From the NCBI RefSeq assembly GCF_026626745.1, contig NZ_JAPNJW010000002.1:1126151-1190150 (forward strand): a stretch of DNA of 64,000 nucleotides, read 5' to 3'. Position numbers and translations under genes: made by a program. The DNA is from Nannocystis sp. RBIL2 (lineage in GTDB: Bacteria > Myxococcota_A > Polyangia > Nannocystales > Nannocystaceae). Positions 20,830-37,690 of the stretch are shown in pieces. The stretch's first letter is position 1. The number at the start of each line of letters is the position of its first letter. The notes under the pieces are model-generated. The model saw only the letters and a list, made by a program, of their open reading frames with translations, was not told the origin of the DNA and searched no databases.

Positions 20830-22935
20830 TCAACCCGGCTCGAGGACGAACGGGTACGAGACGATGACCGAGCCGCCGCCCTCCGGCTTGGGGAAGGTCC
20901 AGCGCTTGACCGCCTGGGCGATGCAGGAGCCGACCGCCGGGTCCTTCATCGTGCTCTCCTGGACCACCGCGGTGGGCACCTTGCCGGTGCCGCCGATGGT
21001 GAACTGGACGGCGACGCGGCCCTTGGCGTTGGGGTCGCGGGCGAGGGCCTGGTTGTAGCAGTAGCGGACCTCGTTGATGTGCGCGCGGACGATGCGGCGG
21101 ATGATGTCCTTGTCGAGCGCGCCCTGGACCTCGGCCTTGGCCTGACGGACCGTCGGGACGCGGGTGCCGCGGCCGCCGAAGCCGGCGCCAGCGCCACGGC
21201 CGTAGCCGGAGCCCGTGCCGCCGCCGCCGCCCTTGCCGATGAGGCCCGTGTTGCCGAGGCCGATCGTGCCCTCGCCGGTGCCACCGCCGCCGCGGCCGGT
21301 GCCGACCAGGCCGAGGCCGCCGACGCCGTACGCCTCGCCGACCTCCGTGCCGGTGAGGCCGCCCCACACGTCCGCGTCGTCGTTGCCGACCGCGAACGCG
21401 CCGCCGTACGGCGAGGCGAGGAAGTGGCCGCTCTCGGCGCTCATCACCCCGAGGATGCCGGCCTGGCGCGCGGCCATGTCGGGGTCGAAGTTACGGGCCA
21501 TCTGCGGGATGGCGTCCTTGGGGCCCTTCATGGCGTAGAGGCCCGACTTGCTCTTCGAGGTGGGCTTGCCCATCTTGCCCTCCTCGCCCTTGTGGCGCTG
21601 ACCGGTGCCGCCGGCCTCGTCGTCGGAGTTCTCCATGTCCTCCGGCGGCGGCTCCTCCTCCTCCGGCGGCTTGTCGGGCTGGTTGAGGTAACCGACGAAG
21701 CGGTTCTCTTCCATCATCTCGTCGAGGCTGAGGTTGCCGGCCTCGTTGGGGATCAGGTGCGTGAGCACCAGCAAGCTGCCGATGACCACGAACGACGCGC
21801 CGTTGTAGATCCAGAACGGCTTGTCGGTCTCGCTGCCGCCCTTGATCACCGCGCCCGGCGCGACCGAGTTCACGTAGAAGGTGACGTCCTGGTACTTGAC
21901 CCGCGCCGTCGCTCCGGGCGGCAGCGGGAAGCTGAACGACGAGCCCTGCGAGCCCGCGCGGCCGGTCGCTACCAGCTGCTGCAGCGTGATCGTCTGGCCG
22001 TCGAAGGTGACCTCGCCGCTCATGTTCTGCGTGAAGTTGAGCGCGAACTCGTGGTCGCTGCCGCGGACCAGCGGGAAGCCGTTGGGCTCGGGCAGGCCGG
22101 CGGGCGGCACGTGGAACGACGCGCCGTGGCCCTCGCCGATCGTGAAGTTCTTGTTGACGTAGTCGCCGGTGCGGATGAGGCCCATGCTGAACGGCACGAG
22201 GCCCGCGATCGCCAGCAGCATGCCGATCGCCGCCAGGCCGTTTCCGGGCGGGGTCGGGCGCGGCGTGCCCTGCTCGATCGAGTCCTGGACCTTCTTGCCG
22301 TAGCCGGCCCAGTCCTGGTTCACGTCGCTGAAGAACACGCCCACGCCGGCGACCAGCATCACGCCGCCGATGGCGAGGAAAATGGGCGCCTGCGACTTGC
22401 GGTTCTTCAGCTGGCCGACGTGCTGCACGTCGAGCACCGTCGAGCCGTACATCGCCACGACCTCGGCCACCCGCGAGCCGCTCTGAACCTCGACCTCGCT
22501 GAGGTCGATCTGGATCGGGGCCCGCGTCGCCATCGGCGCCGCAGCGAGCGGAGCCGCCGCGACCGCGGCCGCCGCCACGGCCACCGGCGCGGCCACCTGC
22601 GCCGGCGCCGGCGCAGCCGCGACCTGCTGCTTGGCGAAGCCGACCTCGAGGCGGTACGGCCCGAAGTTCAAGGCGTCACCGTCGTGCAGCACCGCGTTCT
22701 TGTCGATCCGCTGGCCGTTGAGCACGGTGCCCGCCGCGCTCCCGAGATCGATCACCCGCACCTCTTCGCCGGACACCTCGATCACGGCGTGCATGCGGGC
22801 CACGGCCTCGTCATCCAGACAGATGTGGCTACTCTTCAGTTTTCCGATCTTGATAACGTCTTGCGTCAGCGTCTGCGTATCGACGAGCTGATCGCCGTAA
22901 AACACTTTGATGGCGAGCGTCTTGGTCGTTGTCAT
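20830..22935 (-). CDS. FHA-domain membrane protein with Gly-rich region and AgmX/PglI-type TonB_C-like C-terminal domain (PglI-like)
   Basis: N-terminal FHA domain (KIGKLKSSHICLDDEAVARMHAVIEVSGEEVRVIDLGSAAGTVLNGQRI), a TM segment, an acidic Pro-rich linker, and a (GxGxG)n stretch. The C-terminus (IIRRIVRAHINEVRYCYNQALARDPNAKGRVAVQFTIGGTGKV…) resembles the AgmX/PglI/TonB_C fold. Confidence 0.75.
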   Translation of the reverse strand: MTTTKTLAIKVFYGDQLVDTQTLTQDVIKIGKLKSSHICLDDEAVARMHAVIEVSGEEVRVIDLGSAAGTVLNGQRIDKNAVLHDGDALNFGPYRLEVGFAKQQVAAAPAPAQVAAPVAVAAAAVAAAPLAAAPMATRAPIQIDLSEVEVQSGSRVAEVVAMYGSTVLDVQHVGQLKNRKSQAPIFLAIGGVMLVAGVGVFFSDVNQDWAGYGKKVQDSIEQGTPRPTPPGNGLAAIGMLLAIAGLVPFSMGLIRTGDYVNKNFTIGEGHGASFHVPPAGLPEPNGFPLVRGSDHEFALNFTQNMSGEVTFDGQTITLQQLVATGRAGSQGSSFSFPLPPGATARVKYQDVTFYVNSVAPGAVIKGGSETDKPFWIYNGASFVVIGSLLVLTHLIPNEAGNLSLDEMMEENRFVGYLNQPDKPPEEEEPPPEDMENSDDEAGGTGQRHKGEEGKMGKPTSKSKSGLYAMKGPKDAIPQMARNFDPDMAARQAGILGVMSAESGHFLASPYGGAFAVGNDDADVWGGLTGTEVGEAYGVGGLGLVGTGRGGGGTGEGTIGLGNTGLIGKGGGGGTGSGYGRGAGAGFGGRGTRVPTVRQAKAEVQGALDKDIIRRIVRAHINEVRYCYNQALARDPNAKGRVAVQFTIGGTGKVPTAVVQESTMKDPAVGSCIAQAVKRWTFPKPEGGGSVIVSYPFVLEPG

Positions 22936-23204
22936 CGTCCTTGCCCCGGTCGTGTGGCGCCTCGGACACGGCCTTTTGGGGCTTGTTCCCGAGGCCCGCG
23001 AGCTTTTTTCGCGCCCGCGCGGGGCGTCTGCGCCGGCGCACGTCCGCGCGCGGACTCGGGCTTCGGGCGCGCCCCTGCGTCCGGCCACGCGTCCGCGGCT
23101 CGCGGCCGGCCGCGGCGGCTTCGTGATACCGTGACCCGAGGCGCCGTCCGTGCCCGGATCCGGGCGAGGCGCGCCTGCTGCCCCTCTCACGCCCTCGCCC
23201 CGGC

Positions 23205-23711
23205 ATGACCTCCGACCTCGCGCCCCCCTCACCTCCCGGCCCGAGCCCGATCCTCACCCTCCGGATCAGCGTCCGCGGGCTATATGACAGCTGGACGCAC
23301 TGCCAGCGGCTGGCCGATTACATCGCGCGCTTCGTCGCCTCCGATCGCTTCGATCCCGAGCAGCTGACCACGCGCCTCTCGACCTATCTCAACGAGGTGC
23401 TCGAGTACGTGTTCCGCGCCCGGCCGAGCGAGGGCGAGATCGTGGTCGAGGTCGGGCGCACGGACGAGCACGTGATCGCCGAGCTGACGATACCGACCGA
23501 CGAGGCGCTCGCGCAGCGGCTGCGCGACGACCTCGGGCGGGTCGCGCCGGCGGACGCGCGCGCGCGCTACGAGGCCGAGTTCGAGTCGATGATCCTGCGT
23601 CCGCCGGCCGAGGTCGGGCTGCTCGAATTGGTCGCGCTCCACGGCGTCGAGCTCACGCTGCGCGAGGGCGACGGCGCCGGCGTCATCGTCCTTACTGTCC
23701 CGCACGAGTGA
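23205..23711 (+). CDS. RsbW-like (GHKL/HATPase_c-fold) putative anti-sigma/serine-kinase homolog, paralog 1
   Basis: Alignable to the 27302..27865 protein. The motifs are degenerate (…YLNEVLEYVFRA…GEIVVEVGRTDEHVIAELTIPTD…). It is the first gene of the operon. Confidence 0.45.
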   Translation: MTSDLAPPSPPGPSPILTLRISVRGLYDSWTHCQRLADYIARFVASDRFDPEQLTTRLSTYLNEVLEYVFRARPSEGEIVVEVGRTDEHVIAELTIPTDEALAQRLRDDLGRVAPADARARYEAEFESMILRPPAEVGLLELVALHGVELTLREGDGAGVIVLTVPHE

Positions 23712-23723
23712 GCCGAGCTGGGT

Positions 23724-24896
23724 ATGGAGAACGAGCAACCGTTTTCGATCCGCTTCAGCGAGAACGACCAGGAGGTCGCGCTCGAGGGGACGCTGCGGCC
23801 CGCCGGCCCCGAGGCGTTCGCGCCGGTGCGGGCGCGCCTCGACCACGCCGCCGACGCCGTGCGCGGCGTCCTCTACCTCAACTTCAAGCGCCTGCGTTAC
23901 CTCAACCACACCGGCTTCCTCGAGCTCGCGCGCTTCATCGCCGCCTGCGCCGAGCGCCACCCGAGCCTCAAGCTCAAGCTCGTCGTCTCGAGCGTCGTCC
24001 CGTGGGCGCCGCTGCGCTTCGGCTTCCTCGGCGCGCAGTTCGGCAACACCATCGTCGAGCAGTACGACAAGGCGTTTTACCCCGGCCAGGGCGTCATCGA
24101 GAACGACCAGCTCGTGCCGGTCCTGCGCACCCAGACCAACATCGTGTGGTCGCACGAGCGCGAGCTGCTGCGCCGCCACGGCCTCGGCAAGCGCATGCGG
24201 ATCGCCGACATCTGCTGCGGGATCGGCGACTTCGCGGTGCTCGTCTACAAGGAGTTCGAGCCCGCGTACATCGTCGGCGTCGACCACTCGCGGCCCTTCC
24301 TTCAATACGCGCAGCAGATGGCCCGCGAGTTCGGCATCACCGACATCGAGTATCAGTTCGGCGACGCGACCCACCTGTTCTTGCCGTCGAACAGCTTCGA
24401 CTTCGTCACCTCGCGCCTGGCGCTGCAGATCTTCAACGATCCGTCGAGCATCTTGCGCGAGCTGGTGCGGATCTGTAAACCCGGCGGTCGGGTCTACCTG
24501 ACCAACGAGATGACGGTGCACAACTACGGCTACCCGCGCCACGAGTCGGTCGCGTGGACCTACCAGCACGCCGTGAAGATCGCCCAGAGCCTCGGCATGG
24601 ACATGAACTTCGGGCCCAAGATGTTCTCGCTGCTGACCGACATGGGCTTCGAGGACGTGCGCATGGAGCAGATCCCGATCACCAACAACAACACCGCGAT
24701 CGACGACTTCGCGCGGGTGATCGAGAGCTGGGAGGAGTACGTCACCGGCGAGCTGTCGACCGCCACGCAGCAGCCGCCGGAGGTGGTCGAGCGCCTGCGC
24801 ATGGGCTTCCGCGATCACGTCTACGCGATCCGCAGCCGCCGCGGCTTCGCCACCTGGCCGATCTACGTCGCCTCCGGCCGCAAACCGGAGCGCTGA
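23724..24896 (+). CDS. STAS (anti-sigma-antagonist-like) domain fused to class I SAM-dependent methyltransferase
   Basis: The N-terminal ~110 aa has the STAS topology, with YLNHTGFLEL replacing the canonical DSSG phospho-motif. The C-terminus has the MTase motif I (DICCGIGDF), ICKPGGRVYL and a Rossmann-like fold. Confidence 0.7.
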   Translation: MENEQPFSIRFSENDQEVALEGTLRPAGPEAFAPVRARLDHAADAVRGVLYLNFKRLRYLNHTGFLELARFIAACAERHPSLKLKLVVSSVVPWAPLRFGFLGAQFGNTIVEQYDKAFYPGQGVIENDQLVPVLRTQTNIVWSHERELLRRHGLGKRMRIADICCGIGDFAVLVYKEFEPAYIVGVDHSRPFLQYAQQMAREFGITDIEYQFGDATHLFLPSNSFDFVTSRLALQIFNDPSSILRELVRICKPGGRVYLTNEMTVHNYGYPRHESVAWTYQHAVKIAQSLGMDMNFGPKMFSLLTDMGFEDVRMEQIPITNNNTAIDDFARVIESWEEYVTGELSTATQQPPEVVERLRMGFRDHVYAIRSRRGFATWPIYVASGRKPER

Positions 24897-24917
24897 CGGC
24901 CCTCGCCGCTCGACCGC

Positions 24918-27278
24918 ATGGCCACCACGGGCTCAAGGTTCCGCACCAAGTTCGTCCTCGTCGCCGGGGTCGGGCTGGTGATCGGGCTGACGCTCGCGGC
25001 GCTGGCCTCGCTGAAGGGCATCCGCGTGCTCGGCGGCGACGCGTCGGAGGAGATCCGCAAGGGCCTCGAGCGGGCCAGCCGCGAGTACCTCACCAACCAC
25101 ATCGAGGACACCGCGCAGCGCGTCGAATTCCTGCGCGGGCGGGCGCGGGCCGAGCTCGGCGTGCTCGCGGCAGTCACCCAGACGCTCATCGATCGGCAGG
25201 CCGACCTTGCGCCGCTGACCGCCGCCGCCGCTGCTGCCGGGCCGCTGCGCGACGCCCTCGTCTATGACCCGCGCGGCGACTGGTCGCAGACCGAGGCCGG
25301 TGAGCCGTCGGCGGTGGCAGTGTGGGGCTACCTGCACGCGCCGGCCGACCCGAAGCAACCTGGCCTTCGGGACATCAAGCCCGAGGTCCGCGCCGCAGTC
25401 GAGCAGACCGCCCTGCTCGACCTGCTGCTGCCCGCGCTGCTGCAGTACGGGGCCGAGAAGCAGGCCATGTACTTCATCGGCCCCGAGGGCGCCGAGTACC
25501 TGCGGATCGCCCCTTACGCCGACGCTGCGGGCCACGCCGACCAGCTCTATCCCGGCCACAACAAGAGCCCGTTCTGGAGCTTCTACTTCCCCGGCATCGT
25601 CGACGGCTGGCGGCGCTGGCTCCCCGATCCCGCGCGCATGCGCGACCCGGCGGCGCAGGTCACCGGCACCGCGCCGTACACCGACGCGGGCGGCAGCGGG
25701 GCCATCATGACCATGTTCCAGCCGCTGTGGGACGCCTCGCGCGCGCGCTTCGCCGGGGCCGTCGGCGTCGACGTCACCCTCGGTCAATTGATCCGCTACG
25801 TCCAGGACCTCGAGCTCGCCGGCTCGGGCTTCGCCTTCCTCGCCCAGGAGAACGGCAACGTGTTCGCCGTCAACGCCGACGGCCAGGAGATCCTCGGCCT
25901 GCAGCAGGCCAGCGGCTCGTCGGGTGCCGGCGTCGACATCTTCCAACAGTTCCTGCACCAGTCGCGCGACCCGGCGATCCAGGCGCTCGCGCTGCCCAGC
26001 GGCGATACCGTCGACTACCGCGACCCGGTAGCGATCGGCGGCAAGGACTACGTCGTCGTGCTCAAGCGGCTCGATCCGTTCAACGTCTGGTCGGGTTCGA
26101 CCGACATCGTGCCGGAGCGCTGGACCCTCGGCTTCGTCGTGCCTGCCGCCGAGATCTACGCCTCGCTGCACAAGGCGCAGGACACCATCGCCGCCAGCAG
26201 CCGCGGGATCCTCGTCAGCCAGATCGTCATCACTCTGGTCGCGCTCGCGGTCGTGATGTTCGGGATCCTCCTGGTCTCGCGACGCATGACCGGCGCGCTG
26301 GTCGACCTCGCCGCGGGCGCCGGCAAGATCGCGCAGAAGGACTACGACGTGCGGGTCGACGTGCGCAGCGACGACGAGTTCGGCGCGCTCGGCCGCGCCT
26401 TCAACCAGATGGCCGCCGAGATCCGCGCGTATACGCACGATCTCGAGCGGCTGGTCGAGCAGCGCACCGCCGAGCTGCAGCGGGCCTCCCGCGAGATCAT
26501 GGCGCTCAACGAGCGGCTCAAGCAGGAGAACCTGCGCCTCGGCGCCGAGCTCGACGTCGCCCGCCGGCTGCAGCTCATGGTGCTGCCGCAAGAGCGCGAG
26601 CTGGCCGAGCTCGAGGGCCTGGACGTCGCCGGCTACATGCGGCCCGCGGACGAGGTCGGCGGCGACTACTACGACGTCCTGCGCGCCGGCGACGGCGTCA
26701 AGATCGGCATCGGCGACGTCACTGGCCACGGCCTCGAGAGCGGCGTGCTGATGCTGATGATCCAGACGGCCGTGCGCACCCTGCAGGCCGCCGAGGAGCG
26801 CGACGCGGAGCGCTTCCTCAACATCGTCAACAAGGTCCTCTATCAGAACATCCAGCGCGTCGGCCTCGACCGCACCGCGACGCTGGTGCTCCTCGACTAC
26901 GCGCAGGGCGTGCTCCGCCTCACCGGACAGCACGAGGAGGCGGTGGTGGTCCGGCGGGGCGGCTCGATCGAGCGCATCGACACGGTCGACCTCGGCATGC
27001 CGGTGGGGCTCGAGGTCGACATCGCCGCGTTCATCGCCCGCACCGAGCTGCGCCTGTCGCCGGGCGATGTCGTCGTCCTGTACACTGACGGCATAACCGA
27101 GGCGGAGGACATCCACGGCGAGCTGTACGGCATCGACCGCCTGTGCGAGGTGGTGCGCCGGGTCCACGAGCGGCCGGCGGCGGAGATCAAGCAGGCGATC
27201 GTCGACGACGTCATGCGCTTCATCGGCGCGCAGAAGGTCTTCGACGACATCACGACGGTGGTGATCAAGCGGCGCTGA
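24918..27278 (+). CDS. membrane sensor PP2C (SpoIIE/RsbU-type) Ser/Thr phosphatase with periplasmic sensor domain and HAMP
   Basis: TM1 near residues 12-32, a ~400-aa periplasmic domain, TM2 (ILVSQIVITLVALAVVMFGILLV), a HAMP domain (…DEFGALGRAFNQMAAEI), a coiled coil, and a PPM domain (GGDYYDV…GDVTGHGLESG…YTDGITEA). Confidence 0.85.
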   Translation: MATTGSRFRTKFVLVAGVGLVIGLTLAALASLKGIRVLGGDASEEIRKGLERASREYLTNHIEDTAQRVEFLRGRARAELGVLAAVTQTLIDRQADLAPLTAAAAAAGPLRDALVYDPRGDWSQTEAGEPSAVAVWGYLHAPADPKQPGLRDIKPEVRAAVEQTALLDLLLPALLQYGAEKQAMYFIGPEGAEYLRIAPYADAAGHADQLYPGHNKSPFWSFYFPGIVDGWRRWLPDPARMRDPAAQVTGTAPYTDAGGSGAIMTMFQPLWDASRARFAGAVGVDVTLGQLIRYVQDLELAGSGFAFLAQENGNVFAVNADGQEILGLQQASGSSGAGVDIFQQFLHQSRDPAIQALALPSGDTVDYRDPVAIGGKDYVVVLKRLDPFNVWSGSTDIVPERWTLGFVVPAAEIYASLHKAQDTIAASSRGILVSQIVITLVALAVVMFGILLVSRRMTGALVDLAAGAGKIAQKDYDVRVDVRSDDEFGALGRAFNQMAAEIRAYTHDLERLVEQRTAELQRASREIMALNERLKQENLRLGAELDVARRLQLMVLPQERELAELEGLDVAGYMRPADEVGGDYYDVLRAGDGVKIGIGDVTGHGLESGVLMLMIQTAVRTLQAAEERDAERFLNIVNKVLYQNIQRVGLDRTATLVLLDYAQGVLRLTGQHEEAVVVRRGGSIERIDTVDLGMPVGLEVDIAAFIARTELRLSPGDVVVLYTDGITEAEDIHGELYGIDRLCEVVRRVHERPAAEIKQAIVDDVMRFIGAQKVFDDITTVVIKRR

Positions 27279-27301
27279 GGCGCTCTAGGCGGACGGAGAG
27301 T

Positions 27302-27865
27302 ATGGACGGCATCATCGGCGAGTACAAAGAGCCCACCGACGCTGGACCGCGCGTCATGCTGACGTTTTACCCCGGGGCGTTCCCGGTCAAGTGGAACCAG
27401 TGCAGCGTGGCGGCCGACTTCTTCGCCGAGTACTTCGCCGACGTCGGCGAGGGCGGGCTCACCGAGGAGGCCGAGCGGCGCGACTTCGTCGGCAGCGTCG
27501 GCTACGTGCTCAACGAGCTGATCGAGAACGCGGTCAAGTTCTGCGCCGGCGGCACCGTCGTCATCGACGCGGGCGTCGAGGCGGGCGAGTTCGTGGTCGT
27601 CGTCAGCAACCAGGTCTGCGGCGACGCGGTCGACGGCCTGCGTATCAAGTTCGCCGAGCTGCTCGACGGCGATCCCGCCGAGCTCCTGATGCAGCGGGTC
27701 GAGGAGAACGCCGCCAACCCCGAACTCACGACCTCGGGCCTGGGCTTTCTCACCATGCTGTCGGACTACAAGGCCCGGCTCGGCTGGCGCTTCGACCCCG
27801 CCCCTGGCAATCCTGACAACGCGCTCCTCAAGACCGCCGCCCGGCTACAGGTGAAATCGTCATGA
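27302..27865 (+). CDS. RsbW-like GHKL-fold serine kinase/anti-sigma-like protein, paralog 2
   Basis: N-box (VLNELIENAVKF), a G1-like motif (NQVCGDAVDG) and a G2-like motif (TSGLGFL). The stop overlaps the start of the next gene by 4 nt. Confidence 0.6.
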   Translation: MDGIIGEYKEPTDAGPRVMLTFYPGAFPVKWNQCSVAADFFAEYFADVGEGGLTEEAERRDFVGSVGYVLNELIENAVKFCAGGTVVIDAGVEAGEFVVVVSNQVCGDAVDGLRIKFAELLDGDPAELLMQRVEENAANPELTTSGLGFLTMLSDYKARLGWRFDPAPGNPDNALLKTAARLQVKSS

Positions 27866-28236
27866 CGGACACAACTACGCGACCCTCCGGGTCGGACACC
27901 GACATCAAAGGCCCCGGCTATCGCGTGTGGTTCGACGCGCCCGCGCGCACGGTCCACTTCGAGGGCGTGCTCCGCCTCAGCACCAGCGAGTACAAGCCGA
28001 TCGAGGACCTGCTCGACCGCGTCCTGCTGGCCAACCCCGCGCTCGCCCTGCGCATGACCGAGCTGCAGTTCCTCAACAGCTCGGGCATCAACATGCTCTA
28101 CAAGTTCGCCATCGCCGCGCGCAAGAAGGGCGAGACCGAGATCAAGGTCCACGGCTCGTCGACCATCCCGTGGCAGGGCAAGTCGCTGCCCAACCTCAAG
28201 AAGTTCCTGCCGACGATCGTCATCGCCCTCGACTGA
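27862..28236 (+). CDS. STAS-domain anti-sigma-factor-antagonist-like protein
   Basis: FLNSSGINMLYKF matches the STAS phospho-serine motif F-x-D/N-S-S-G. It is ~124 aa and homologous to the N-terminus of the 23724 protein. Confidence 0.7.
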   Translation: MTDTTTRPSGSDTDIKGPGYRVWFDAPARTVHFEGVLRLSTSEYKPIEDLLDRVLLANPALALRMTELQFLNSSGINMLYKFAIAARKKGETEIKVHGSSTIPWQGKSLPNLKKFLPTIVIALD

Positions 28237-28249
28237 GCCGGCCGCCCGC

Positions 28250-29476
28250 ATGCTCACGGATGACCCGCGCTGGCGGCGAGCCCTCGCCGACCCCGACGCC
28301 GCGGCCGAGCTCCTGGCCGACCCGGCCGCGCGCGCCGAGTTCATGGCCGCCGTCGCCACCCTGCAGGCCGAGCACGACGACCTCGTGCTGCTGCACGACT
28401 CGACGCTCGAGCACGCCAACGAGATCGAGGAGCAGCTGGCAGTCAAGATCGAGCAAGTCGAGGCGCTGGTGGTCGAGCTCGAGCTGCGCAACACCTTCAT
28501 CCGCCAGGTGTTCGGCCGCCACGTCACCGACGAGGTCGTCAATACGTTGCTCGCCTCGCCGGAGGGCCGCCAGCTCGGCGGCGAGCGGCGCACCCTGACG
28601 ATCCTGATCTCCGACCTGCGCGGCTTCTCGACCCTCTGCGAGGGCCTGGGCCCCGAGCAGGTGGTGGCGATCCTCAACATCTACCTCGGCGCCATGGCCG
28701 ACGTGATCGGCGAGTACCGCGGCTCGATCAACGAGTTCATCGGCGACGCCATCCTCGCGGTGTTCGGCGCCCCGGTGCCGCAGGAGGACCACCCCGAGCG
28801 CGCGGTCGCCTGTGCGATCGCCATGCAGCGGGCGATGGGCCGCGTCAACGCCGCGCTGGCCGAGCACGGCCTGCCCGCGCTCGAGATGGGCATCGGCGTC
28901 CACACCGGCGAGGTCGTGGTCGGCAACATCGGCTCGAACCGCCGCGCCAAGTACGGCGTGGTCGGCCGCCACGTCAACCTGACGTCGCGCATCGAGAGCT
29001 ACACCGTCGGCGGCCAGGTCCTGATCTCCGAGTCGGCCGCGCGGGCCCTCGGCGACCGCCTCCGCACCCGCGGCTGCTTCGAGGTCCGGCCCAAGGGCGT
29101 GCGCGAGCCGATCACGATCCACGACGTCACCGGCGTCGACGGCCCGTTCGCCATCCACATGATCGAAGAGGCCGCCGCGTGGCGGGTCCTGGCCGAGCCG
29201 CAGCCGCTCGTGTTCACCGCGCTCGAGGGCAAGGACACCGGCGGCCAGGAGTTCCCGGCGCTGCTCGTGGCCCACGACGAGCGCCACAACGCCGAGCTGC
29301 GGGTCGCCGCCCCGCTGCCGCTGCGCGCCGACCTCAAGCTCGTGCTCGCCGCCCTGCCCGGCGTCGACGCCTACGCCAAGGTCGTCGCCGCCGGCCCGGG
29401 CCGCGCGGTGGTCCGCTTCACCGCCCTGCCCCGCGCGCTGCAAGAGCTGCTCGACTCCCTGCCCGCGCGCGAGTGA
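28250..29476 (+). CDS. class III adenylyl/guanylyl cyclase (CHD) with N-terminal coiled coil and C-terminal unknown domain
   Basis: Cyclase motifs RTLTILISDLRGFSTL, FIGDAILAVFGAP, GIGVHTGEVVVGNIGS and KYGVVGRHVNLTSRIES. Confidence 0.85.
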   Translation: MLTDDPRWRRALADPDAAAELLADPAARAEFMAAVATLQAEHDDLVLLHDSTLEHANEIEEQLAVKIEQVEALVVELELRNTFIRQVFGRHVTDEVVNTLLASPEGRQLGGERRTLTILISDLRGFSTLCEGLGPEQVVAILNIYLGAMADVIGEYRGSINEFIGDAILAVFGAPVPQEDHPERAVACAIAMQRAMGRVNAALAEHGLPALEMGIGVHTGEVVVGNIGSNRRAKYGVVGRHVNLTSRIESYTVGGQVLISESAARALGDRLRTRGCFEVRPKGVREPITIHDVTGVDGPFAIHMIEEAAAWRVLAEPQPLVFTALEGKDTGGQEFPALLVAHDERHNAELRVAAPLPLRADLKLVLAALPGVDAYAKVVAAGPGRAVVRFTALPRALQELLDSLPARE

Positions 29477-29494
29477 AGCGCCGACGGGAAGTCC

Positions 29495-29565
29495 CCGAGG
29501 ACATGTCGCCTCGGACATGTCCCGGAAGACCTTTCCCGCAGAGCATGCCCCTTCGGACATGCCCT
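29495..29565. repeat. 14/28-bp phased array of GACATG(T/C)C half-sites in convergent gap
   Basis: CATG occurs at 29502, 29516, 29544 and 29558 (spacings 14, 28, 14): ggacatgtcgcc, cggacatgtccc, gcatgcccc, ggacatgccc. Confidence 0.8.
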
Positions 29566-29573
29566 TTCGACCA

Positions 29574-31085
29574 TCAGTCGCGGCGGGCCAGCAGCGTCGC
29601 GTGCATGTCGCTGCCGTCGAGGCTCTCGTCGAGCGGCTCGTCGATGTCGATGATCACGCTCTCGCCGCCCGAGCTCGTCGGCGGCGGGATCGGCGGGACC
29701 GAGCGCGGCGCCACCGAGCCCGGCGGGGCCTCGACGGGGGCGCTCCGCGACCCGCGACCCTCGACGCCGGCGAAGCGGGCCGCCAGGGTGCGCACGAACG
29801 CGCCCATCCACGGCTTCATCGACGTCAGCTCCTCCTCGATCAGGTCGCTGGTGATCTTGGTGAGCGTCGCGTCCTCGACCACCAGCACGCTGGCGGTCCG
29901 GCGCGAGGCGGCGAAGATCGAAGTCTCGCCGAACACGTCGCCCGGCCCGAGCCAGCGCAGCGACACGTGGTGCCCCGCCTCAAGCTTGTAGACCTCGAGC
30001 CTGCCGGCCAGCACGATGTAGGCCGCGTCGCCGATCTCACCCTCGCGGATCACGTGGTCGCCGGCGGCGAAGCGGACCGTCTGGAAGCTGCCGCTGCCGC
30101 GCAGCAGGCGGACGATGTCGGCCTGCAGCGCCGCCACGCTCGGGTAGCGATCCTCGGGATCGCGGCGCAGCGCCCGGGTCACGATGCGCACCAGCTCGCG
30201 CGGGAACGGCACCGCGACGTGGCTGTCGGGCGGGGCGAACTTCGCCTCGCGCGCGAGGATCAGCGCGTCCATCGCCGTGCGCGCCTGGTACGGCGGCCGC
30301 CCGACCATCATCTCGTAGAGCAGCGCCCCCATCGAGAACACGTCGGCGCGCTCGTCGAGCGGATGGCTGTTGGCCTGCTCCGGCGACATGTACGACGGCG
30401 TGCCGAACACCAGCCCGTCGGTCTCCGACGGCGGCAGCGGCGGCAGGGCGTCACGGACCCACCGCGCCTCGTCCTCGGCGGAGCGCAGCGGCAGGATCTG
30501 GGCCCCGCCCCAGTCCATCAGATAGACCTGGCCGTAGGCGCCGACCATCACGTTGGCCGACTTGATGTCGCAGTGGATCACCCCGCGGCTGTGGGCGAAC
30601 GACAGCGCGTCGCACACCTTGACGAAGATCTCGAGGCGGTGGAACAGCCGCTCGTGGTCGGTCGCCGGCTCGCCGCCGATCAGCGCCTTCAAGCTCTGGC
30701 CCTCGACCAACTTCATCGTGAAGTAGAGCTGGCCCTGCTCGTCGCGCCCGAGCTCGTGGATCGGCACGATGTTGGGGTGGTCGAGCTGACCGGTCACCTG
30801 GGCCTCGCGCAAGAACCCGTGCACGAGGATCAGGTGGTCGTAGGTCTTGGCGTGCATGGTCTTGGCGGCCATCCGCCGCTGCAGCACCTCGTCGAACGCG
30901 AGCCGCACCGAGCCCATCCCGCCGCGCGCCAGCTCGTCGCCGAACGACAGCCGCGGCACCTGGTCCGGCAGCGCCGCGCGGATGAGGGCCTCGAGCCGCT
31001 CCTCATAGGAGAGCGGGGAGTCGCGGTCGAACAGCCGCTCGAGCGCGGCGCTGGGGGGCGAGCCTCCGGGGCGGCGACCTGGCAT
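29574..31085 (-). CDS. Hanks-type Ser/Thr protein kinase with C-terminal cyclic-nucleotide-binding (cNMP) domain
   Basis: Kinase subdomains (GGMGSVRLA, AAK, HCDIKSANV, DWG, SPE). The C-terminus has a CAP-type cNMP-binding domain (FAAGDHVIREGEIGDAAYIVLAGRLEV…GPGDVFGETS). The probable start is the ATG at 31085. Confidence 0.85.
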   Translation of the reverse strand: MPGRRPGGSPPSAALERLFDRDSPLSYEERLEALIRAALPDQVPRLSFGDELARGGMGSVRLAFDEVLQRRMAAKTMHAKTYDHLILVHGFLREAQVTGQLDHPNIVPIHELGRDEQGQLYFTMKLVEGQSLKALIGGEPATDHERLFHRLEIFVKVCDALSFAHSRGVIHCDIKSANVMVGAYGQVYLMDWGGAQILPLRSAEDEARWVRDALPPLPPSETDGLVFGTPSYMSPEQANSHPLDERADVFSMGALLYEMMVGRPPYQARTAMDALILAREAKFAPPDSHVAVPFPRELVRIVTRALRRDPEDRYPSVAALQADIVRLLRGSGSFQTVRFAAGDHVIREGEIGDAAYIVLAGRLEVYKLEAGHHVSLRWLGPGDVFGETSIFAASRRTASVLVVEDATLTKITSDLIEEELTSMKPWMGAFVRTLAARFAGVEGRGSRSAPVEAPPGSVAPRSVPPIPPPTSSGGESVIIDIDEPLDESLDGSDMHATLLARRD

Positions 31086-31137
31086 GCGGGGCCACGATAC
31101 AATGGCGCCTCGGCGGTGGTACACCGGGACGGCCGGC

Positions 31138-32292
31138 ATGGACCTGCGCACTGCCCTCGTCACGCTCCGCCTGCGCCACCCGTTCGGCCTGTCGCGCGGC
31201 ACCGTGAGCGAACTGCCGAGCTTGCTCGTGCGCCTTGACCCGGGCGACCCGGACGGCGCCGCAGCGGACGGCCCCGATCGCCGCGGCCTCGGCGAGGCCT
31301 CGCCCGTGCGCTACCTCGGTCAGTCGGCGATCGCCGCCGCGCCTCTGGCCACAGCGATCGCGGCCGAGCTGTCCCCCGAGATCCTCGCCGACCCGCGCGC
31401 GATCGCGGCCGCCGGCCCGCGCATGCGCGAGCTCGCCCCCGATCACTCCGCGGCCCGCTGCGCCGTCGACACCGCCCTGTGGGACGCGGCCGCGCGCGCC
31501 CGCGGCCGCTCGCTGGCCGAGCTGCTGGCCGACCCCGACGTGCTCGATCGGGCAGGTCTCGATCGCCATGTCCTTTCGGCCACCTCGGGGGCGACCGTCA
31601 CCTCTTACACGATCGCGCTCGACGAGCTCCCGGCGATGGCGGCCCGCGCGGCCGCGGCCGCGCACCTCCCGGTGCTCAAGATCAAGCTCGGCAAGGGCCG
31701 CGAATTCGACCGCAAGGCCGTGCGTGCGATCGCCGCCGCCGCCCCGAACGCCCGCCTGCGGGTCGACGCCAACGGCGGCTGGACCCCGGACGACGTGCGC
31801 GACCTGCTCCCGCTGCTGATCGACCTCGGGGTCGAGCAGCTCGAGCAGCCGCTGCCTGCGGGTCGGCCCGACCTCCTCGCGGCGCTCGCGCGCGACTGCC
31901 CCCTGCCGATCTACGCCGACGAGGACGTGCAGGGCCCGGACGACGTGGCGGCGCTGCGGGGCCGGGTCGCGGGCATCAACGTCAAGCTGATGAAGTGCGG
32001 CGGGATCTCGCCGGCCCTGGCGACGATCGCCGCAGCCCGGGAAAACGGCCTGCGGGTGCTCGTCGGCTGCATGATCGAGACCCGCGTCGGGCTCGCCGCC
32101 GGCGCCGCCCTGGCCCGCCTCGCCGACGAGGCCGACCTCGACGCCCACATGCTCACGCGGGCCGACCCGATGCCGCCGGGGAGTCAAGAGCGGCTCGCGC
32201 CCGACCTGCCGCGGCTTTGCGGCCCCGGCCTCGGCGTCCCGCCCGGGGCGTTGCCCGCGGACGGCGACCCGGGGCCCGGGCGCGTGGCATAA
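31138..32292 (+). CDS. enolase-superfamily dipeptide epimerase (L-Ala-D/L-Glu epimerase-like)
   Basis: MR/MLE-family metal ligands (KIKLG…RVDANGGW…EQP…ADE…KLMKCGG). Divergent from the kinase. Confidence 0.7.
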   Translation: MDLRTALVTLRLRHPFGLSRGTVSELPSLLVRLDPGDPDGAAADGPDRRGLGEASPVRYLGQSAIAAAPLATAIAAELSPEILADPRAIAAAGPRMRELAPDHSAARCAVDTALWDAAARARGRSLAELLADPDVLDRAGLDRHVLSATSGATVTSYTIALDELPAMAARAAAAAHLPVLKIKLGKGREFDRKAVRAIAAAAPNARLRVDANGGWTPDDVRDLLPLLIDLGVEQLEQPLPAGRPDLLAALARDCPLPIYADEDVQGPDDVAALRGRVAGINVKLMKCGGISPALATIAAARENGLRVLVGCMIETRVGLAAGAALARLADEADLDAHMLTRADPMPPGSQERLAPDLPRLCGPGLGVPPGALPADGDPGPGRVA

Positions 32293-32305
32293 TCCACGCT
32301 CCACC

Positions 32306-35300
32306 TTGAATCCCGACGAGCCCCAGGCCCGCGCCTCGCTGCCGGTGACGCCACCTGTCCCTGAGGACATCCTTCCGCGTCCGCTCGGCCGCTACGAGCT
32401 GGTGCGTCGGGTCGGCTCCGGCAGCATGGGCGTCGTCTACGCCGCGCTCGATCGCGACAGCGGCCGCACCATCGCGGTCAAGACCCTGCACCAGCTCGAC
32501 CCGGGCGCGCTGTTCCGCCTCAAGAACGAGTTCCGCAGCGCCGCCGGCCTGTCGCACCCCAACCTCGTCAGCCTCCACCAGCTCGTCTCGCACGACGACG
32601 AGTGGTTCATCACCATGGAGTTCGTCGACGGCGTCAGCTTCGTCGACCATGTCCGTCAGGGCATGTCCGAAAAGCCAGGCGCTGCGCCGCCGCCGGAGCG
32701 CCTGCGCCCGGCCCTGCTGCAGCTAGCCGCCGGCGTCAGCGCCCTGCACGCCGCCGGCAAGCTGCACCGCGACCTCAAGTCGTCGAACGTGCTGGTGACC
32801 GCCGATGGCCGCGTCGTCATCCTCGACTTCGGCCTCGCCGCCGACGACGTCGCCGAGGGCGGCGAGGACGGCCTGCTCGGCACGCCGGCGACGATGGCGC
32901 CGGAGCAGGCCGCCGGCAACCCGGCCTCGCCCGCGAGCGACTGGTACGCGATCGGCGTCATGCTCTACGAGGCGCTCACCGGCCGCCTGCCGTTCACCGG
33001 CCCGCCGCTCGCGATCCTCCACGCCAAGCAGCACGAAGATCCGGCCCCGCCGCAGGCGCTCGTGCCCGACGTCGATCCGGAGCTGGCGACCCTGTGCGTG
33101 GGCCTGCTGCAGCGCGACCCGGCCGCGCGGCTCGGCGGCGCCGACATCCGCGAGGCCCTCGGCGAGGCCCCGCTCGGCCCCACCGAGTCGGGCGCGCGCT
33201 TCGTCGGCCGCGACGACCTGCTGTCGGCGATGCGCGACGCCTTCCAGCTCGCGCTCGCCGGCTCGCCGGTGTGCGTGTACGTCCGCGGCCGCTCCGGCAT
33301 CGGCAAGACCGCGCTCATCGATCGCTTCATCGCCGAGCTGCGCCGCAACGACCGCGCCTTCGTCCTCCAGGGCCGCTGCTACGAGCGCGAGAGCGTGCCG
33401 TACAAGGCCTTCGACAGCGTCCTCGACGCGCTCGCGCAGCACCTCCGCCACCTCCCGCAGGAGGAGGCCGCGGCCCTGCTGCCGCGCGAGATCCACGAGC
33501 TCACGCGGCTGTTCCCCGTCCTCGCGCGCGCCCCCGTGGTCGCCGATCTGCCGCAGCGCAACTTCGTCGCCCCCGACCCGCAAGAGGCACGGCGTCGGGC
33601 CTTCCGCGGGCTCAAGGAGCTGCTGGCGCGGATCGCCGATCGCCGCCCCCTGGTGCTGCGGATCGCCGATCTCCAGTGGGGCGACGAGGACAGCGCGCGC
33701 CTGCTCGCCGAGCTGCTGTCGCCGCCCGATCCGCCGGCGATGCTCTTCATCGGCTCGTACCGCATCGACGAGGACGACGCGCCGATGCTCCGCGAGCTGC
33801 GGCGGCTCGGCGCGCGGCCCGAGCTCAAGGCTCTGGTGCGCGACCTGCTGGTCGAGCCGCTCTCGCCCGATCAGGCCGAGGAGCTCGCGCTGGCCCGGCT
33901 CGGCCGTGACAGCGACAGCGCCCGCGCCGAGGCGCGCCGGATCGCCGCCGAGTCGGGCGGCAACCCGCTGTTCGTCGAGGAGCTCGCGCGCCACATCGCC
34001 GGTCACCGCGGCGCCGCGCCGGCCGAGGTCTCGCTCGACGCGGTCGTGCGCACTCGCCTCGCCGGCCTGCGCGCCGCGGGTCGCAGCCTGCTCGAGATCG
34101 TCGCCATCGCCGGGCGGCCGATCCCGCCGAGCCTCGCGTTCACGGCCTCGGGCGTCACCGATCGCTCGGTCCTCGGCGAGCTGCAGGCGCAGCACCTGCT
34201 GCGCACTCTGGCCTCGCGCAGCGGCGACACCGTCGAGTGCTATCACGACCGGATCCGCGACACCGTGCTGGCGCAGCTCGACGGCGAGCGCCAGGCGCAG
34301 CTGCACCGCACCCTCGCCGACGCGCTCGCGCAGTCGGCCGACGACCCCGAGCTGCTGGCGCACCACCTCCACGCCGCCGGCGCCTTGAAGGAGGCGCACG
34401 CCGCCGCCGTCGCCGCCGCCGAGCGGGCCGCCGCCGCGCTCGCGTTCTACCGCGCCGCCCAGCTGTACGGCCGCGCCCTCGCGTGGGCGCCCGACCTCCC
34501 GGACGACGAGCGCCGCGCCCTCCTCCGCCGTCGCGCCGACGCGCTCGCGCTGGCCGGTCGCAGCGCCGAGGCGGCCCCGGTCTACGCCAGCGCCGCCGAG
34601 GGCGCCTCGCCGGCCGAATCACTCGAGCTGCGCCGCCGCGCCGGCGAGCAGTTCCTCGTCAGCGGCAACATCGACCAGGGCGTGCGGATGCTGCGCCCCG
34701 CGCTGGTCGAGGTCGACCTCGGCTACCCGGCCACGCCGGGCCGCGCCAACATGTCGATCATCACCCGCTCCACGCAGCTCAGCTTGCGCGGGCTCGGCTT
34801 CGCCGCGGTGCGCGAGGAGCAGGTCCCGCCGGCCGATCTGCTGCGCCTCGACGTGTGCCTGTCGGCGGCCGTCGGCCTCGCCTTCGTCGATCCGATCCGC
34901 GGCTACAGCTTCTACCAGCGCGGCCTCCTCCTGGCCCTTCAGACAGGTGAGCCGCAGCGCATCGCCCGCGCGCTCGCCGGCGTCGGCGCCATGATCATGA
35001 GCCGCGGCACCGCCAACGCCGTCAGCCGCGGCACCACCCTGCTCAAGGAGGCGCGCCGCCTCGCCGAACAGATCTCGGAGCCGCGCCTCATCGGCCTGTG
35101 CGAGATCGTCGACGCCATCGCCGCCGTCTCGCTCGGCCGCTGGCGCCGCGCGCTCGAGCACTGCGAGCAGGGCGCCCAGATCCTGCTCGACCGCTGCGTC
35201 GGCGTCGGCTGGGAGCTCGACCTCGCCCGCATGAGCACGATGCGCGGCCTGTTCATGCTCGGCGAGCTGGCCGAGCTCGGCCACCGCGCCCACGCCTGGC

Positions 35301-35992
35301 TGCGCGAGTCGGAGGACGCCGGCGATCTGTGCGGCGAGGTCTGGTCGGCCCTCTACAGCGCCTACGCTCTGCTCGGCGCCGACGACATCACCAGCGCCCG
35401 CGACCGCGTGCGCGGGGCGATGCGCCGCTGGTCGAAGGAGGGCTTCCACTTCCAGCACATGCTCGCGCTGCTCCTCGAGACCTCGTGCGACCTGTACCAA
35501 GGGCAAGGTGGCTCGGCCTGGCAGCGTCTGGCCGAGAACTGGGTCGCCGTCGAGAACTCGTACATCTTCGGCTGGCAGGGCCAGCGGATCCTCTTCCTCC
35601 ACGCGCGGGGCCTCGCCGCCGTCGCGGCCGCGCGCGAGCAGCCGCACAACGCCGGCGTCCTGCTCGCCGCCGCCGAACGCGACGCCGCGCAGCTCGAGGA
35701 GGACCGCGCGCTGCGCCACGACTCCGTCGCCATGGCCGCGCTGATCCGGGCCGGCATCGCCGCACAGAACGGCGACATCCAGCAGGCGCTCGTCCGCCTC
35801 GAGGCCGCCGCCGCCAGCTTCGACACCGCCGACATGCCGGTCCACGCCGCCTGCGCCCGTCGCCGCCGCGGCGAGCTGCTGGGTCCCAGCGGCGCCACGT
35901 TGATCGCCCAGGCCGACCAGTACCTCGCCTCGCGGGCCATCCTCCGCCCCGCGCAGTGGAGCGCGATGTACAACGGCAGCGCGCCCACCTGA
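32306..35992 (+). CDS. large Ser/Thr protein kinase with AAA+ (STAND/AAA_16) ATPase and TPR-like regulatory domain (PknK-like)
   Basis: N-terminal Hanks kinase (GSGSMGVVY, VAVK, HRDLKSSNV, DFG, APE). It has a Walker A (GRSGIGKTAL) and a long helical/TPR region. TTG start at 32306, or GTG at 32347. Confidence 0.85.
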   Translation: MNPDEPQARASLPVTPPVPEDILPRPLGRYELVRRVGSGSMGVVYAALDRDSGRTIAVKTLHQLDPGALFRLKNEFRSAAGLSHPNLVSLHQLVSHDDEWFITMEFVDGVSFVDHVRQGMSEKPGAAPPPERLRPALLQLAAGVSALHAAGKLHRDLKSSNVLVTADGRVVILDFGLAADDVAEGGEDGLLGTPATMAPEQAAGNPASPASDWYAIGVMLYEALTGRLPFTGPPLAILHAKQHEDPAPPQALVPDVDPELATLCVGLLQRDPAARLGGADIREALGEAPLGPTESGARFVGRDDLLSAMRDAFQLALAGSPVCVYVRGRSGIGKTALIDRFIAELRRNDRAFVLQGRCYERESVPYKAFDSVLDALAQHLRHLPQEEAAALLPREIHELTRLFPVLARAPVVADLPQRNFVAPDPQEARRRAFRGLKELLARIADRRPLVLRIADLQWGDEDSARLLAELLSPPDPPAMLFIGSYRIDEDDAPMLRELRRLGARPELKALVRDLLVEPLSPDQAEELALARLGRDSDSARAEARRIAAESGGNPLFVEELARHIAGHRGAAPAEVSLDAVVRTRLAGLRAAGRSLLEIVAIAGRPIPPSLAFTASGVTDRSVLGELQAQHLLRTLASRSGDTVECYHDRIRDTVLAQLDGERQAQLHRTLADALAQSADDPELLAHHLHAAGALKEAHAAAVAAAERAAAALAFYRAAQLYGRALAWAPDLPDDERRALLRRRADALALAGRSAEAAPVYASAAEGASPAESLELRRRAGEQFLVSGNIDQGVRMLRPALVEVDLGYPATPGRANMSIITRSTQLSLRGLGFAAVREEQVPPADLLRLDVCLSAAVGLAFVDPIRGYSFYQRGLLLALQTGEPQRIARALAGVGAMIMSRGTANAVSRGTTLLKEARRLAEQISEPRLIGLCEIVDAIAAVSLGRWRRALEHCEQGAQILLDRCVGVGWELDLARMSTMRGLFMLGELAELGHRAHAWLRESEDAGDLCGEVWSALYSAYALLGADDITSARDRVRGAMRRWSKEGFHFQHMLALLLETSCDLYQGQGGSAWQRLAENWVAVENSYIFGWQGQRILFLHARGLAAVAAAREQPHNAGVLLAAAERDAAQLEEDRALRHDSVAMAALIRAGIAAQNGDIQQALVRLEAAAASFDTADMPVHAACARRRRGELLGPSGATLIAQADQYLASRAILRPAQWSAMYNGSAPT

Positions 35993-37514: not shown

Positions 37515-37690
37515 GGACATGTCACTCGCTACATGTCTCATGCGGCATGTCTTTATCGACATGTCGCATGGTCCATCCGCGTTCTCTCTGAGGATCGCCG
37601 TTGGCGGCCGCACTCTCGGCGACGCCAGACGAGCGACTGCTTGCGATCGGACATGTCGTCACGACATGTCCCAGAAGCCATGAGAGCGAG
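37515..37690. repeat. dense cluster (>=8 copies) of ACATGTC half-sites incl. strict 14-bp phased array
   Basis: CATG at 37518, 37532, 37546 and 37560 (period 14), then 37567, plus GGACATGTCGTC and CGACATGTCCC at 37648-37675. Lies between the convergent purT and 37736 genes. Confidence 0.85.

Follow-up and report, generated by a model that had tools for sequence, protein, structure and literature searches.

The Locus

In a 64,000-nucleotide stretch of the genome of Nannocystis sp. RBIL2 (contig NZ_JAPNJW010000002.1; this whole stretch is called the window below), the gene for a class III nucleotidyl cyclase of the Cya2 type, a predicted guanylyl cyclase (28250-29476, plus strand, 408 residues), meets tail-to-tail the gene for a Hanks-type Ser/Thr kinase with a C-terminal cyclic-nucleotide-binding (CNB) domain (29574-31085, minus strand, 503 residues). 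An original prediction, made from the letters of the DNA, had proposed that the two proteins are the neighbouring producer and receptor of a second messenger, taken to be cyclic AMP (cAMP), and the present analysis concerns that pair, the operon that runs into it and its relatives in other genomes.

Since the window has a G+C content of about 71%, open reading frames (ORFs) were chosen by their third-position GC content (GC3). The ORF of the cyclase (28250-29476, plus strand), which encodes 408 residues, had a GC3 of 0.98, and that of the kinase (29574-31202, minus strand) a GC3 of 0.97, with alignment of the orthologues setting the kinase start at the ATG at 31085, the point at which they begin to align (MPGRRPG...), to give 503 residues. 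The coordinates and domain calls that had been given for both genes were thereby borne out by GC3 and Pfam; only the distance between them needed correction, as the convergent gap (29477-29573) is 97 bp long and not 98 bp. The closest genome was that of Nannocystis pusilla, with 98% identity in the cyclase. For comparison, 80 cyclase-related neighbourhoods were examined with tblastn and further ones were fetched via the kinase; these related loci bear the L-numbers used below. A scan of 22800-32500 for sigma-70 promoters and intrinsic terminators, which is uninformative for a myxobacterium, gave no promoters and terminator-like sites at background level. Housekeeping genes make up the remainder of the window, and there is no phosphodiesterase among them.

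The Cyclase

The catalytic domain of the cyclase (residues 112-296; 28583-29137) matched Pfam Guanylate_cyc (PF00211) over residues 115-283 with an E-value of 5e-26 and 91.8 bits, against a gathering score of 21.9, and its core was 57% identical to that of Cya2 from Synechocystis. In the alignment with Cya2, both metal-binding Asp residues (D122 and D166) were present together with R124, N243 and R247, and all are conserved in the related loci. The protein is thus a class III cyclase with a complete set of catalytic residues and predicted activity. That it might be catalytically dead had been raised in the original prediction as a danger to the whole idea, and since these residues align, along with a Cya2-like E162 and KYG, we regard it as a probably live enzyme and a predicted user of GTP.

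The residues that carry this assignment of substrate are E162 (codon 28733-28735) and G236 (codon 28955-28957), which lie 74 residues apart, the spacing of E488 and G562 in Cya2; K234-Y235-G236 falls on the KYG of that enzyme. Cya2 is a proven guanylyl cyclase with a Glu-Gly specificity pair (Rauch et al. 2008, as reported in PMC6005667), and a single E488K change turns it into an adenylyl cyclase (PMC5995499). Glu together with Gly or Ala occupied the two specificity positions in 64 of the 80 related loci, and the relatives furthest removed, from Chlamydiae (35-38% identity), have Lys-Thr, a combination characteristic of adenylyl cyclases. The adenylyl label originally given to the enzyme therefore does not fit its Glu162/Gly236 pair, which is that of a guanylyl cyclase (PMC6005667), and judged by these residues its product is probably cyclic GMP (cGMP) rather than cAMP.

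Outside the catalytic domain there are two accessory regions. A long N-terminal helix, or stalk (residues 25-88; 28322-28513), continues into FGRH (88-91), the cyclase transducer element, and was modelled by AlphaFold2 (AF2) with a predicted local distance difference test score (pLDDT) of 82-90. Neither a CHASE2 sensor nor a transmembrane N-terminus was found in the window cyclase, whose helix 25-88 is soluble and has no Pfam sensor domain. The stalk region is conserved in orthologues from the Nannocystaceae and Polyangia, and more distant homologues have REC, HAMP or GAF domains instead. At the other end of the protein, residues 312-403 (29183-29458) form a PilZ-like beta-barrel followed by a helix. 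Canonical binding of cyclic di-GMP (c-di-GMP) by this domain was considered and rejected, the motifs RxxxR and (D/N)xSxxG being absent from the window protein; across the cyclase family, the C-terminal PilZ-fold domain conserves LEGK and YAKV in their place. The C-terminal extension of Cya2 is reported to be structurally uncharacterised, yet required for activity (PMC5995499), and it may be the same domain.

The Kinase and Its Nucleotide-Binding Domain

Both parts of the kinase were recognised by Pfam well above the cut-offs, Pkinase with an E-value of 3.6e-37 and 128.6 bits (cut-off 31.7) and cNMP_binding (PF00027) with 64.4 bits (cut-off 27.5), and this combination was common to all 120 best database homologues. 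The kinase domain (approximately residues 47-322; 30120-30947) has every Hanks motif, conserved across the orthologues: the glycine-rich loop at 53-60, K75, E94, H171-C172-D173, N178, D191-W192-G193, T229 and S234-P-E236. Its closest solved structure was the kinase domain of PknB (E 4e-39). The catalytic-loop sequence is HCD in all Nannocystaceae orthologues and HRD only in L028 (a Haliangium metagenome-assembled genome, MAG), which places the window protein among the non-RD kinases. Kinases of this class do not depend on activation-loop phosphorylation, and allosteric control would fit such an enzyme.

The CNB domain (approximately residues 337-450; 29736-30077) contains a phosphate-binding cassette, F385-G-E387...R396-T397-A398 (29889-29933), and a conserved lid helix at 423-438. 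The original prediction had named a missing Arg/Glu cassette as a finding that would refute the relay; the cassette, FGE...R(T/S)A, proved to be conserved in all kinase orthologues, with the Gly-Glu and Arg-Thr-Ala elements kept in every one.

Two side observations concern the kinase. Following a variable Pro-rich linker, all the orthologous kinases end in an acidic motif, GESV(I/M)IDL (residues 474-487, 29625-29666 in the window; conserved in the orthologues of L001-L017), which could serve for docking or as an autoinhibitory peptide. In N. pusilla Na p29 (L001, 11543-12741), the tblastn alignment of the orthologous kinase falls into two overlapping pieces, and the protein as annotated (P0128) has only 357 residues, so that the gene is either frameshifted, or a pseudogene, or else the victim of an assembly error.

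Conservation of the Linkage

Among Myxococcota, orthologues of the cyclase and the kinase were adjacent in approximately 19 of approximately 23 loci, and they were so in three gene arrangements. The pair is convergent, as in the window, in Nannocystis (L001-L008) and in L087-L090; both genes point the same way with the kinase second in L010-L012 and L015-L017 (in L015 at a contig end); and they do so with the kinase first in L028. The flanking genes are wholly different between the three groups. Linkage of the orthologues thus persists through inversion, reordering and change of flanks, down to approximately 50% identity, and the adjacency of the two genes exceeds chance. It is also specific to this kinase orthologue, since no cyclase is linked to the 446-residue STK-CNB paralogue of Nannocystis or to a 681-residue relative (P0196). 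The proposal that producer and plausible receptor are neighbours was therefore not only upheld, it gained evidence from the three conserved arrangements.

In other phyla, cyclases with the Glu-Gly/Ala pair are followed by genes for CNB proteins of other kinds. A CNB-only protein comes next in L021, a fusion of type-2 NADH dehydrogenase (NDH-2) with a CNB domain in L024 and L069, a peroxiredoxin-CNB fusion in L036, and a CRP-like regulator in L031. No other observation speaks as strongly for the kinase as a sensor of the cyclase product as this recurrent pairing of a cyclase with a CNB neighbour. The fusion genes themselves (L024, 2560-4215; L069, 11072-12679; L036, 869-1942) stand directly after the cyclase in MAGs of Binatia, Rokubacteria and NC10. 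Their NDH-2 and peroxiredoxin parts were identified by eye rather than by a Pfam scan, and they hint that cyclic nucleotides control redox enzymes through CNB fusions. In two Nannocystaceae/Polyangia loci in which the kinase gene is missing (L013, 11308-11754; L014, 11238-11690), the cyclase is followed, with an overlap or at a distance of 2 bp, by an ORF of 148-150 residues with the pattern CxxC ... HEHHFVNPHG ... CxxC, which by eye resembles a zinc domain of the CULT/Yippee type.

The Upstream Operon

The original prediction had missed that an operon ends with the producer of its pair, and that this operon appears to encode the input of the cyclase. Six genes, all on the plus strand, follow each other with spacers of 12, 21, 23, -4 and 13 nt, the cyclase being the sixth. 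The first (23205-23711; GC3 0.92) encodes a 168-residue protein that looks like a weak second copy of the slr1658/DUF6272 type (NCBIfam slr1658_superfam, E 1.1e-8, below the cut-off), and a small ORF homologous to it heads the cassette in L081/L084 and L006-L009. The second (23724-24896) encodes a 390-residue methyltransferase that depends on S-adenosylmethionine (Pfam Methyltransf_11/25/31), and such a gene accompanies the cassette in L081, L082, L084 and L006-L009. The third (24918-27278) encodes a 786-residue membrane sensor phosphatase with dCache_1, HAMP and SpoIIE/PP2C domains (Pfam SpoIIE, E 1.6e-39), an architecture like that of SiaA; against the NCBIfam model prot_phos_SiaA (NF038263), it scored E 1.4e-33 over the HAMP and PP2C parts and 116 bits, where the equivalog cut-off is 700.

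The fourth gene (27302-27865), whose ATG is preceded by the ribosome-binding site GGAGAG, encodes a 187-residue protein of the slr1658 superfamily (NF047703, 143.6 bits, cut-off 100), a candidate Ser kinase analogous to SiaB and RsbW. It matched Pfam DUF6272 and HATPase_c (E 0.002) and, weakly, SiaB_fam_kinase (E 3.8e-5), and its N-box NExxENAxKF and G2 box SGLGFLT are invariant. A search of the Protein Data Bank (PDB) with a single slr1658-like sequence returned no matches, and a profile search only weak ones, on the N-boxes of histidine-kinase ATP-binding domains. The label of SiaB homologue was accordingly rejected, as the PDB evidence suffices only for GHKL-like.

The fifth gene (27862-28236), which overlaps the fourth at an ATGA and ends 13 nt before the cyclase, encodes a 124-residue STAS-like phosphoprotein of the slr1659 superfamily (NF047705, 125.2 bits, cut-off 100), some homologues of which match Pfam STAS. 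Its AF2 model (pLDDT 92) matched SiaC best: the top seven hits of a Foldseek search of the PDB were all SiaC chains (6KKO, 7E6G and 6K4F; E 8e-6, template-modelling score 0.62-0.68), with the classical anti-sigma antagonists SpoIIAA and RsbV ranked behind. No match to Pfam DUF1987 was found in the protein, which is therefore a structural relative of SiaC and not a member of its family. At the start of helix 2 (73-89 in the model) lies the predicted phospho-acceptor motif N72-S73-S74 (codons at 28075-28083), part of a FLNSSGIN sequence that is nearly invariant in 28 homologues and aligns with the phosphoserine motif FMDSSG of SpoIIAA. Its position is that of N67-T68-S69 in SiaC, the contact to the stalk of SiaD (PMC8457831). 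In Pseudomonas, unphosphorylated SiaC binds the SiaD stalk helix via these residues and stabilises the active diguanylate cyclase dimer; phosphorylation by SiaB blocks the binding and the PP2C phosphatase SiaA restores it (PMC8457831). By this analogy, the PP2C phosphatase, the GHKL-like protein and the SiaC-like STAS phosphoprotein are likely the input of the cyclase.

Elsewhere, the cassette precedes the cyclase in L090, and follows it in a rearranged order in L009. Two further arrangements of the same families were met. In a Magnetovibrionaceae MAG (L083, 6488-9994), genes for a GGDEF protein, an slr1658-like protein, an slr1659-like protein and a HAMP-PP2C phosphatase stand in a row with a BLUF-domain gene nearby, a layout like that of SiaABCD built from the slr1658 and slr1659 families. 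Near the cyclase-kinase pair of L090 (4821-5909), a 362-residue protein with a second slr1659-like domain (34% identity) has as its neighbours one more Pkinase gene and a phosphatase of the SBP_bac_5-SpoIIE type, so that a second arm of the partner switch may exist there.

A Proposed Relay and Its Alternatives

On balance, and with modest confidence, we favour reading the locus as a second-messenger relay that leads from a sensor through a partner switch to a guanylyl cyclase and thence to a cGMP-gated kinase, the last two being its core two-gene unit. A signal received in the periplasm by the Cache domain would alter the activity of the PP2C phosphatase, which with the GHKL-like slr1658 kinase would set the phosphorylation of S73/S74 in the SiaC-like protein; when unphosphorylated, the latter would bind the stalk helix of the cyclase, favour the active dimer and raise its activity, as SiaC does with SiaD. 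For these signal-to-cyclase steps taken jointly, which are modelled on the Pseudomonas system, we consider the chances evenly balanced. The soluble cyclase would make cGMP from GTP, and the nucleotide would bind the CNB domain of the kinase and switch it allosterically, as in eukaryotic PKG and PKA, with consequences for whatever substrates the kinase may have. That the nucleotide product of the cyclase binds and switches the neighbouring kinase is the step that we hold to be probable with some assurance.

Several observations weigh against parts of this relay, beginning with the identity of its messenger. Cya2 is, to our knowledge, the sole Glu-Gly cyclase with measured substrate specificity. 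PKG domains head the list from a PDB search with the window CNB domain, but the best single-stretch score belongs to PKA RI-alpha, for which reason the nucleotide preference of the domain is not callable from sequence, and the PDB ranking was rejected as a test of cGMP versus cAMP because it does not discriminate. The R-T-A form of the cassette, too, is shared by domains that prefer cAMP, HCN among them. If the enzyme were an adenylyl cyclase after all and the relay ran on cAMP, the RI-alpha score would be in keeping, the cassette (FGE...RRTAS) would be compatible, the public annotations ('adenylate cyclase, class 3') would be right, and the messenger would be the one that is by far the commoner in bacteria. 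We nevertheless regard this as unlikely, as residue 162 is Glu and not Lys and residue 236 is Gly and not Asp or Thr, the pair of a GTP-specific enzyme at 57% identity (PMC6005667) whose use of ATP requires E488K (PMC5995499), and the distant relatives that do bear Lys-Thr are a separate group of lower identity.

Other points bear on the input. The Asp of the G1 box in the slr1658 protein is replaced by an invariant Asn103, and its match to SiaB (NF038262) is weak, with 23.3 bits where the cut-off is 85, which together make its kinase activity uncertain. At least two MAGs have the five-gene cassette and the pair on different contigs (L081/L017 and L084/L011), and L087-L089 keep the pair without the cassette. 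With the cassette split off or missing in these genomes, it could have another target; it may act on something else, its adjacency in Nannocystis being secondary.

As to the pair itself, the orthologous cyclase occurs without the kinase in three Myxococcota loci (L009, L013 and L014), and conserved adjacency shows that two genes are functionally coupled but not in which direction. The wiring could be reversed or run both ways, with the kinase phosphorylating the cyclase in its stalk or PilZ-like region, two accessory regions that have no assigned ligand, and with the CNB domain giving feedback. This seems improbable to us: neither an FHA domain nor another phospho-recognition element was found in the cyclase by Pfam, and in other phyla the CNB partner of the same cyclase type is something other than a kinase, which makes sensing of the nucleotide by the neighbour the common denominator. 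Still more doubtful is that the neighbours are uncoupled, the kinase reading a cell-wide pool of cyclic nucleotides and the cassette controlling something else, for example via its methyltransferase, for although kinases and cyclases abound in myxobacterial genomes, the cassette stands alone in L081, L082 and L084, and an STK-CNB paralogue does without a cyclase beside it, the linkage of the orthologues survives inversion, reordering, complete change of flanks and divergence to approximately 50% identity, and CNB neighbours recur beside Cya2-type cyclases in unrelated phyla.

Neighbouring Genes and an Intergenic Repeat

The original prediction had embedded the pair in a larger signalling island of Ser/Thr phosphorylation and cyclic nucleotides, together with an FHA protein, a dipeptide epimerase and a giant kinase. 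The genes are real, but the island found no support: the synteny of these three does not reach beyond the closest Nannocystis (L001-L005), and they are absent from L006-L017, of which L006-L008 are still at the 64%-identity level. On these grounds, and in view of the housekeeping character of the rest of the window, the idea was rejected. The STK-AAA_16 kinase (32306-35992) was confirmed by Pfam as it stood. The FHA gene needed a new end, since its ORF spans 20830-23232 and does not stop at 22935. The epimerase is a gene of the MR_MLE/enolase superfamily (31084-32292), and within 31084-31140 its probable start is at 31138 (ATGGACCTG...) and not at 31084, which leaves only 52 bp to the divergent start of the kinase at 31085.

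The convergent gap between cyclase and kinase (29477-29573) contains repeated GACATGTC / RCATGYC palindromes. Although the GACATGTC units in this gap are conserved in five Nannocystis species while their flanks diverge, a role as a locus-specific operator was dismissed, the motif being scattered over the intergenic regions of the window: it occurs 16 times where 0.67 is expected, mostly in the gaps between genes at their 3' ends (8621, 15598, 20356, 29500, 29514, 37516-37670, 43781 and 61972, plus five intragenic sites), often in arrays with units approximately 14-15 bp apart. It looks like a dispersed family of repeats of the repetitive extragenic palindromic (REP) kind. Further along the window, on the minus strand (37736-40095), a 468-residue ORF without a Pfam match (37736-39142) is overlapped at its start by the gene for a radical SAM/SPASM protein (39049-40095). 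The two are possibly a peptide-maturation pair, and an MFS transporter (40112-41434) adjoins them.

Comparison with Known Systems

There are few worked examples of bacterial cGMP signalling (Cya2, Rhodospirillum centenum and Xanthomonas), and the locus offers a compact and conserved candidate, in which a cyclase with a predicted one-residue specificity switch (E162K) is joined to a kinase with a single CNB domain. Its upstream switch would bring class III cyclases, in addition to GGDEF enzymes, under activation by a SiaC-type binding partner. The recurrent CNB effectors beside Cya2-type cyclases suggest partners for orphan guanylyl cyclases, and, if the relay is true, effectors across phyla would be hard-wired to cGMP sources of this type, be they a kinase, an NDH-2, a peroxiredoxin or a CRP protein. 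The larger claim, that this is the first complete prokaryotic cascade from cGMP to phosphorylation, with SiaC-like activation through a stalk, a convergent bacterial PKG and Cya2-type cyclases hard-wired to adjacent CNB effectors, is one that we advance only tentatively and consider less likely than not.

The operon resembles SiaABCD of Pseudomonas aeruginosa (PMC8457831; Chen et al. 2020), which likewise has a HAMP-PP2C membrane phosphatase, a small GHKL-like protein (here a candidate kinase), a phosphoprotein of the SiaC fold with the N-(S/T)-S motif and, in the same operon, a nucleotide cyclase whose N-terminus is a long helical stalk (64 residues here). There are differences too. Sia has the GGDEF enzyme SiaD as its output, in place of the class III cyclase here; the candidate kinase and the STAS-like protein come from the slr1658/slr1659 (DUF6272) families, their Sia counterparts from the SiaB and DUF1987 families; the predicted phospho-acceptor is Ser where SiaC has Thr; the sensor of the phosphatase is dCache_1; and two genes, for a methyltransferase and for another DUF6272-like protein, come in addition. 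HsbA-HsbD and BgrV-BgrR, as they are cited in PMC8457831, also join a STAS-type, phosphorylation-dependent partner to a second-messenger cyclase, and in that account these and the other described cases govern the synthesis of c-di-GMP, unlike the class III cyclase here. The literature searched yielded no case of a class III cyclase under partner-switch control, and, on the function of slr1658, slr1659 and DUF6272, genome surveys but no characterising paper.

Cya2 (PDB 2W01) shares with the window cyclase the Glu-Gly pair, the Asn and Arg residues, the transducer element motif (FGRY in Cya2, FGRH here) and a C-terminal extension. As the accounts at hand portray it, it sits in the membrane and senses extracellularly through CHASE2, whereas the window cyclase is soluble with a helical stalk; a description of a cGMP receptor for Cya2 was not found in the literature searched.

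For the kinase, that literature held no characterised bacterial enzyme of the CNB-Hanks type that depends on a cyclic nucleotide, only genome surveys, which report CNB domains on PP2C phosphatases of myxobacteria and on kinases of planctomycetes. The obvious counterpart is eukaryotic PKG, which also has a CNB domain and a Ser/Thr kinase on one polypeptide and the R-T-A form of the cassette. In PKG, however, two to four CNB domains are N-terminal to an AGC-family kinase with a C-tail, while the window protein has a single CNB domain, which follows a PknB-like kinase of the non-RD (HCD) kind with DWG as a further motif. The fusion of the two domains is convergent, and the window kinase, which would be a functional analogue of PKG, is neither its orthologue nor a member of the PKG family.

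As in the window, the gene for a class III guanylyl cyclase stands beside that of its receptor in Xanthomonas campestris (XC_0250/XC_0249; An et al. 2013, PMC3770947). In XC_0249 the CNB domain, in which N145/E146 is the guanine-binding diad, is fused to GGDEF, binding of cGMP raises the activity of the output, and the adjacency of the two genes is kept across relatives (PMC3770947). The outputs differ, a GGDEF diguanylate cyclase there and a Hanks Ser/Thr kinase here, as do the accessory parts of the cyclase, which are TPR-like repeats in XC_0250 and the stalk and PilZ-like domains in the window, and the partner-switch input predicted here has no counterpart described for the Xanthomonas pair. 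These differences notwithstanding, XC_0250 and XC_0249 are the nearest worked example of a cyclase gene and its receptor gene arranged side by side.

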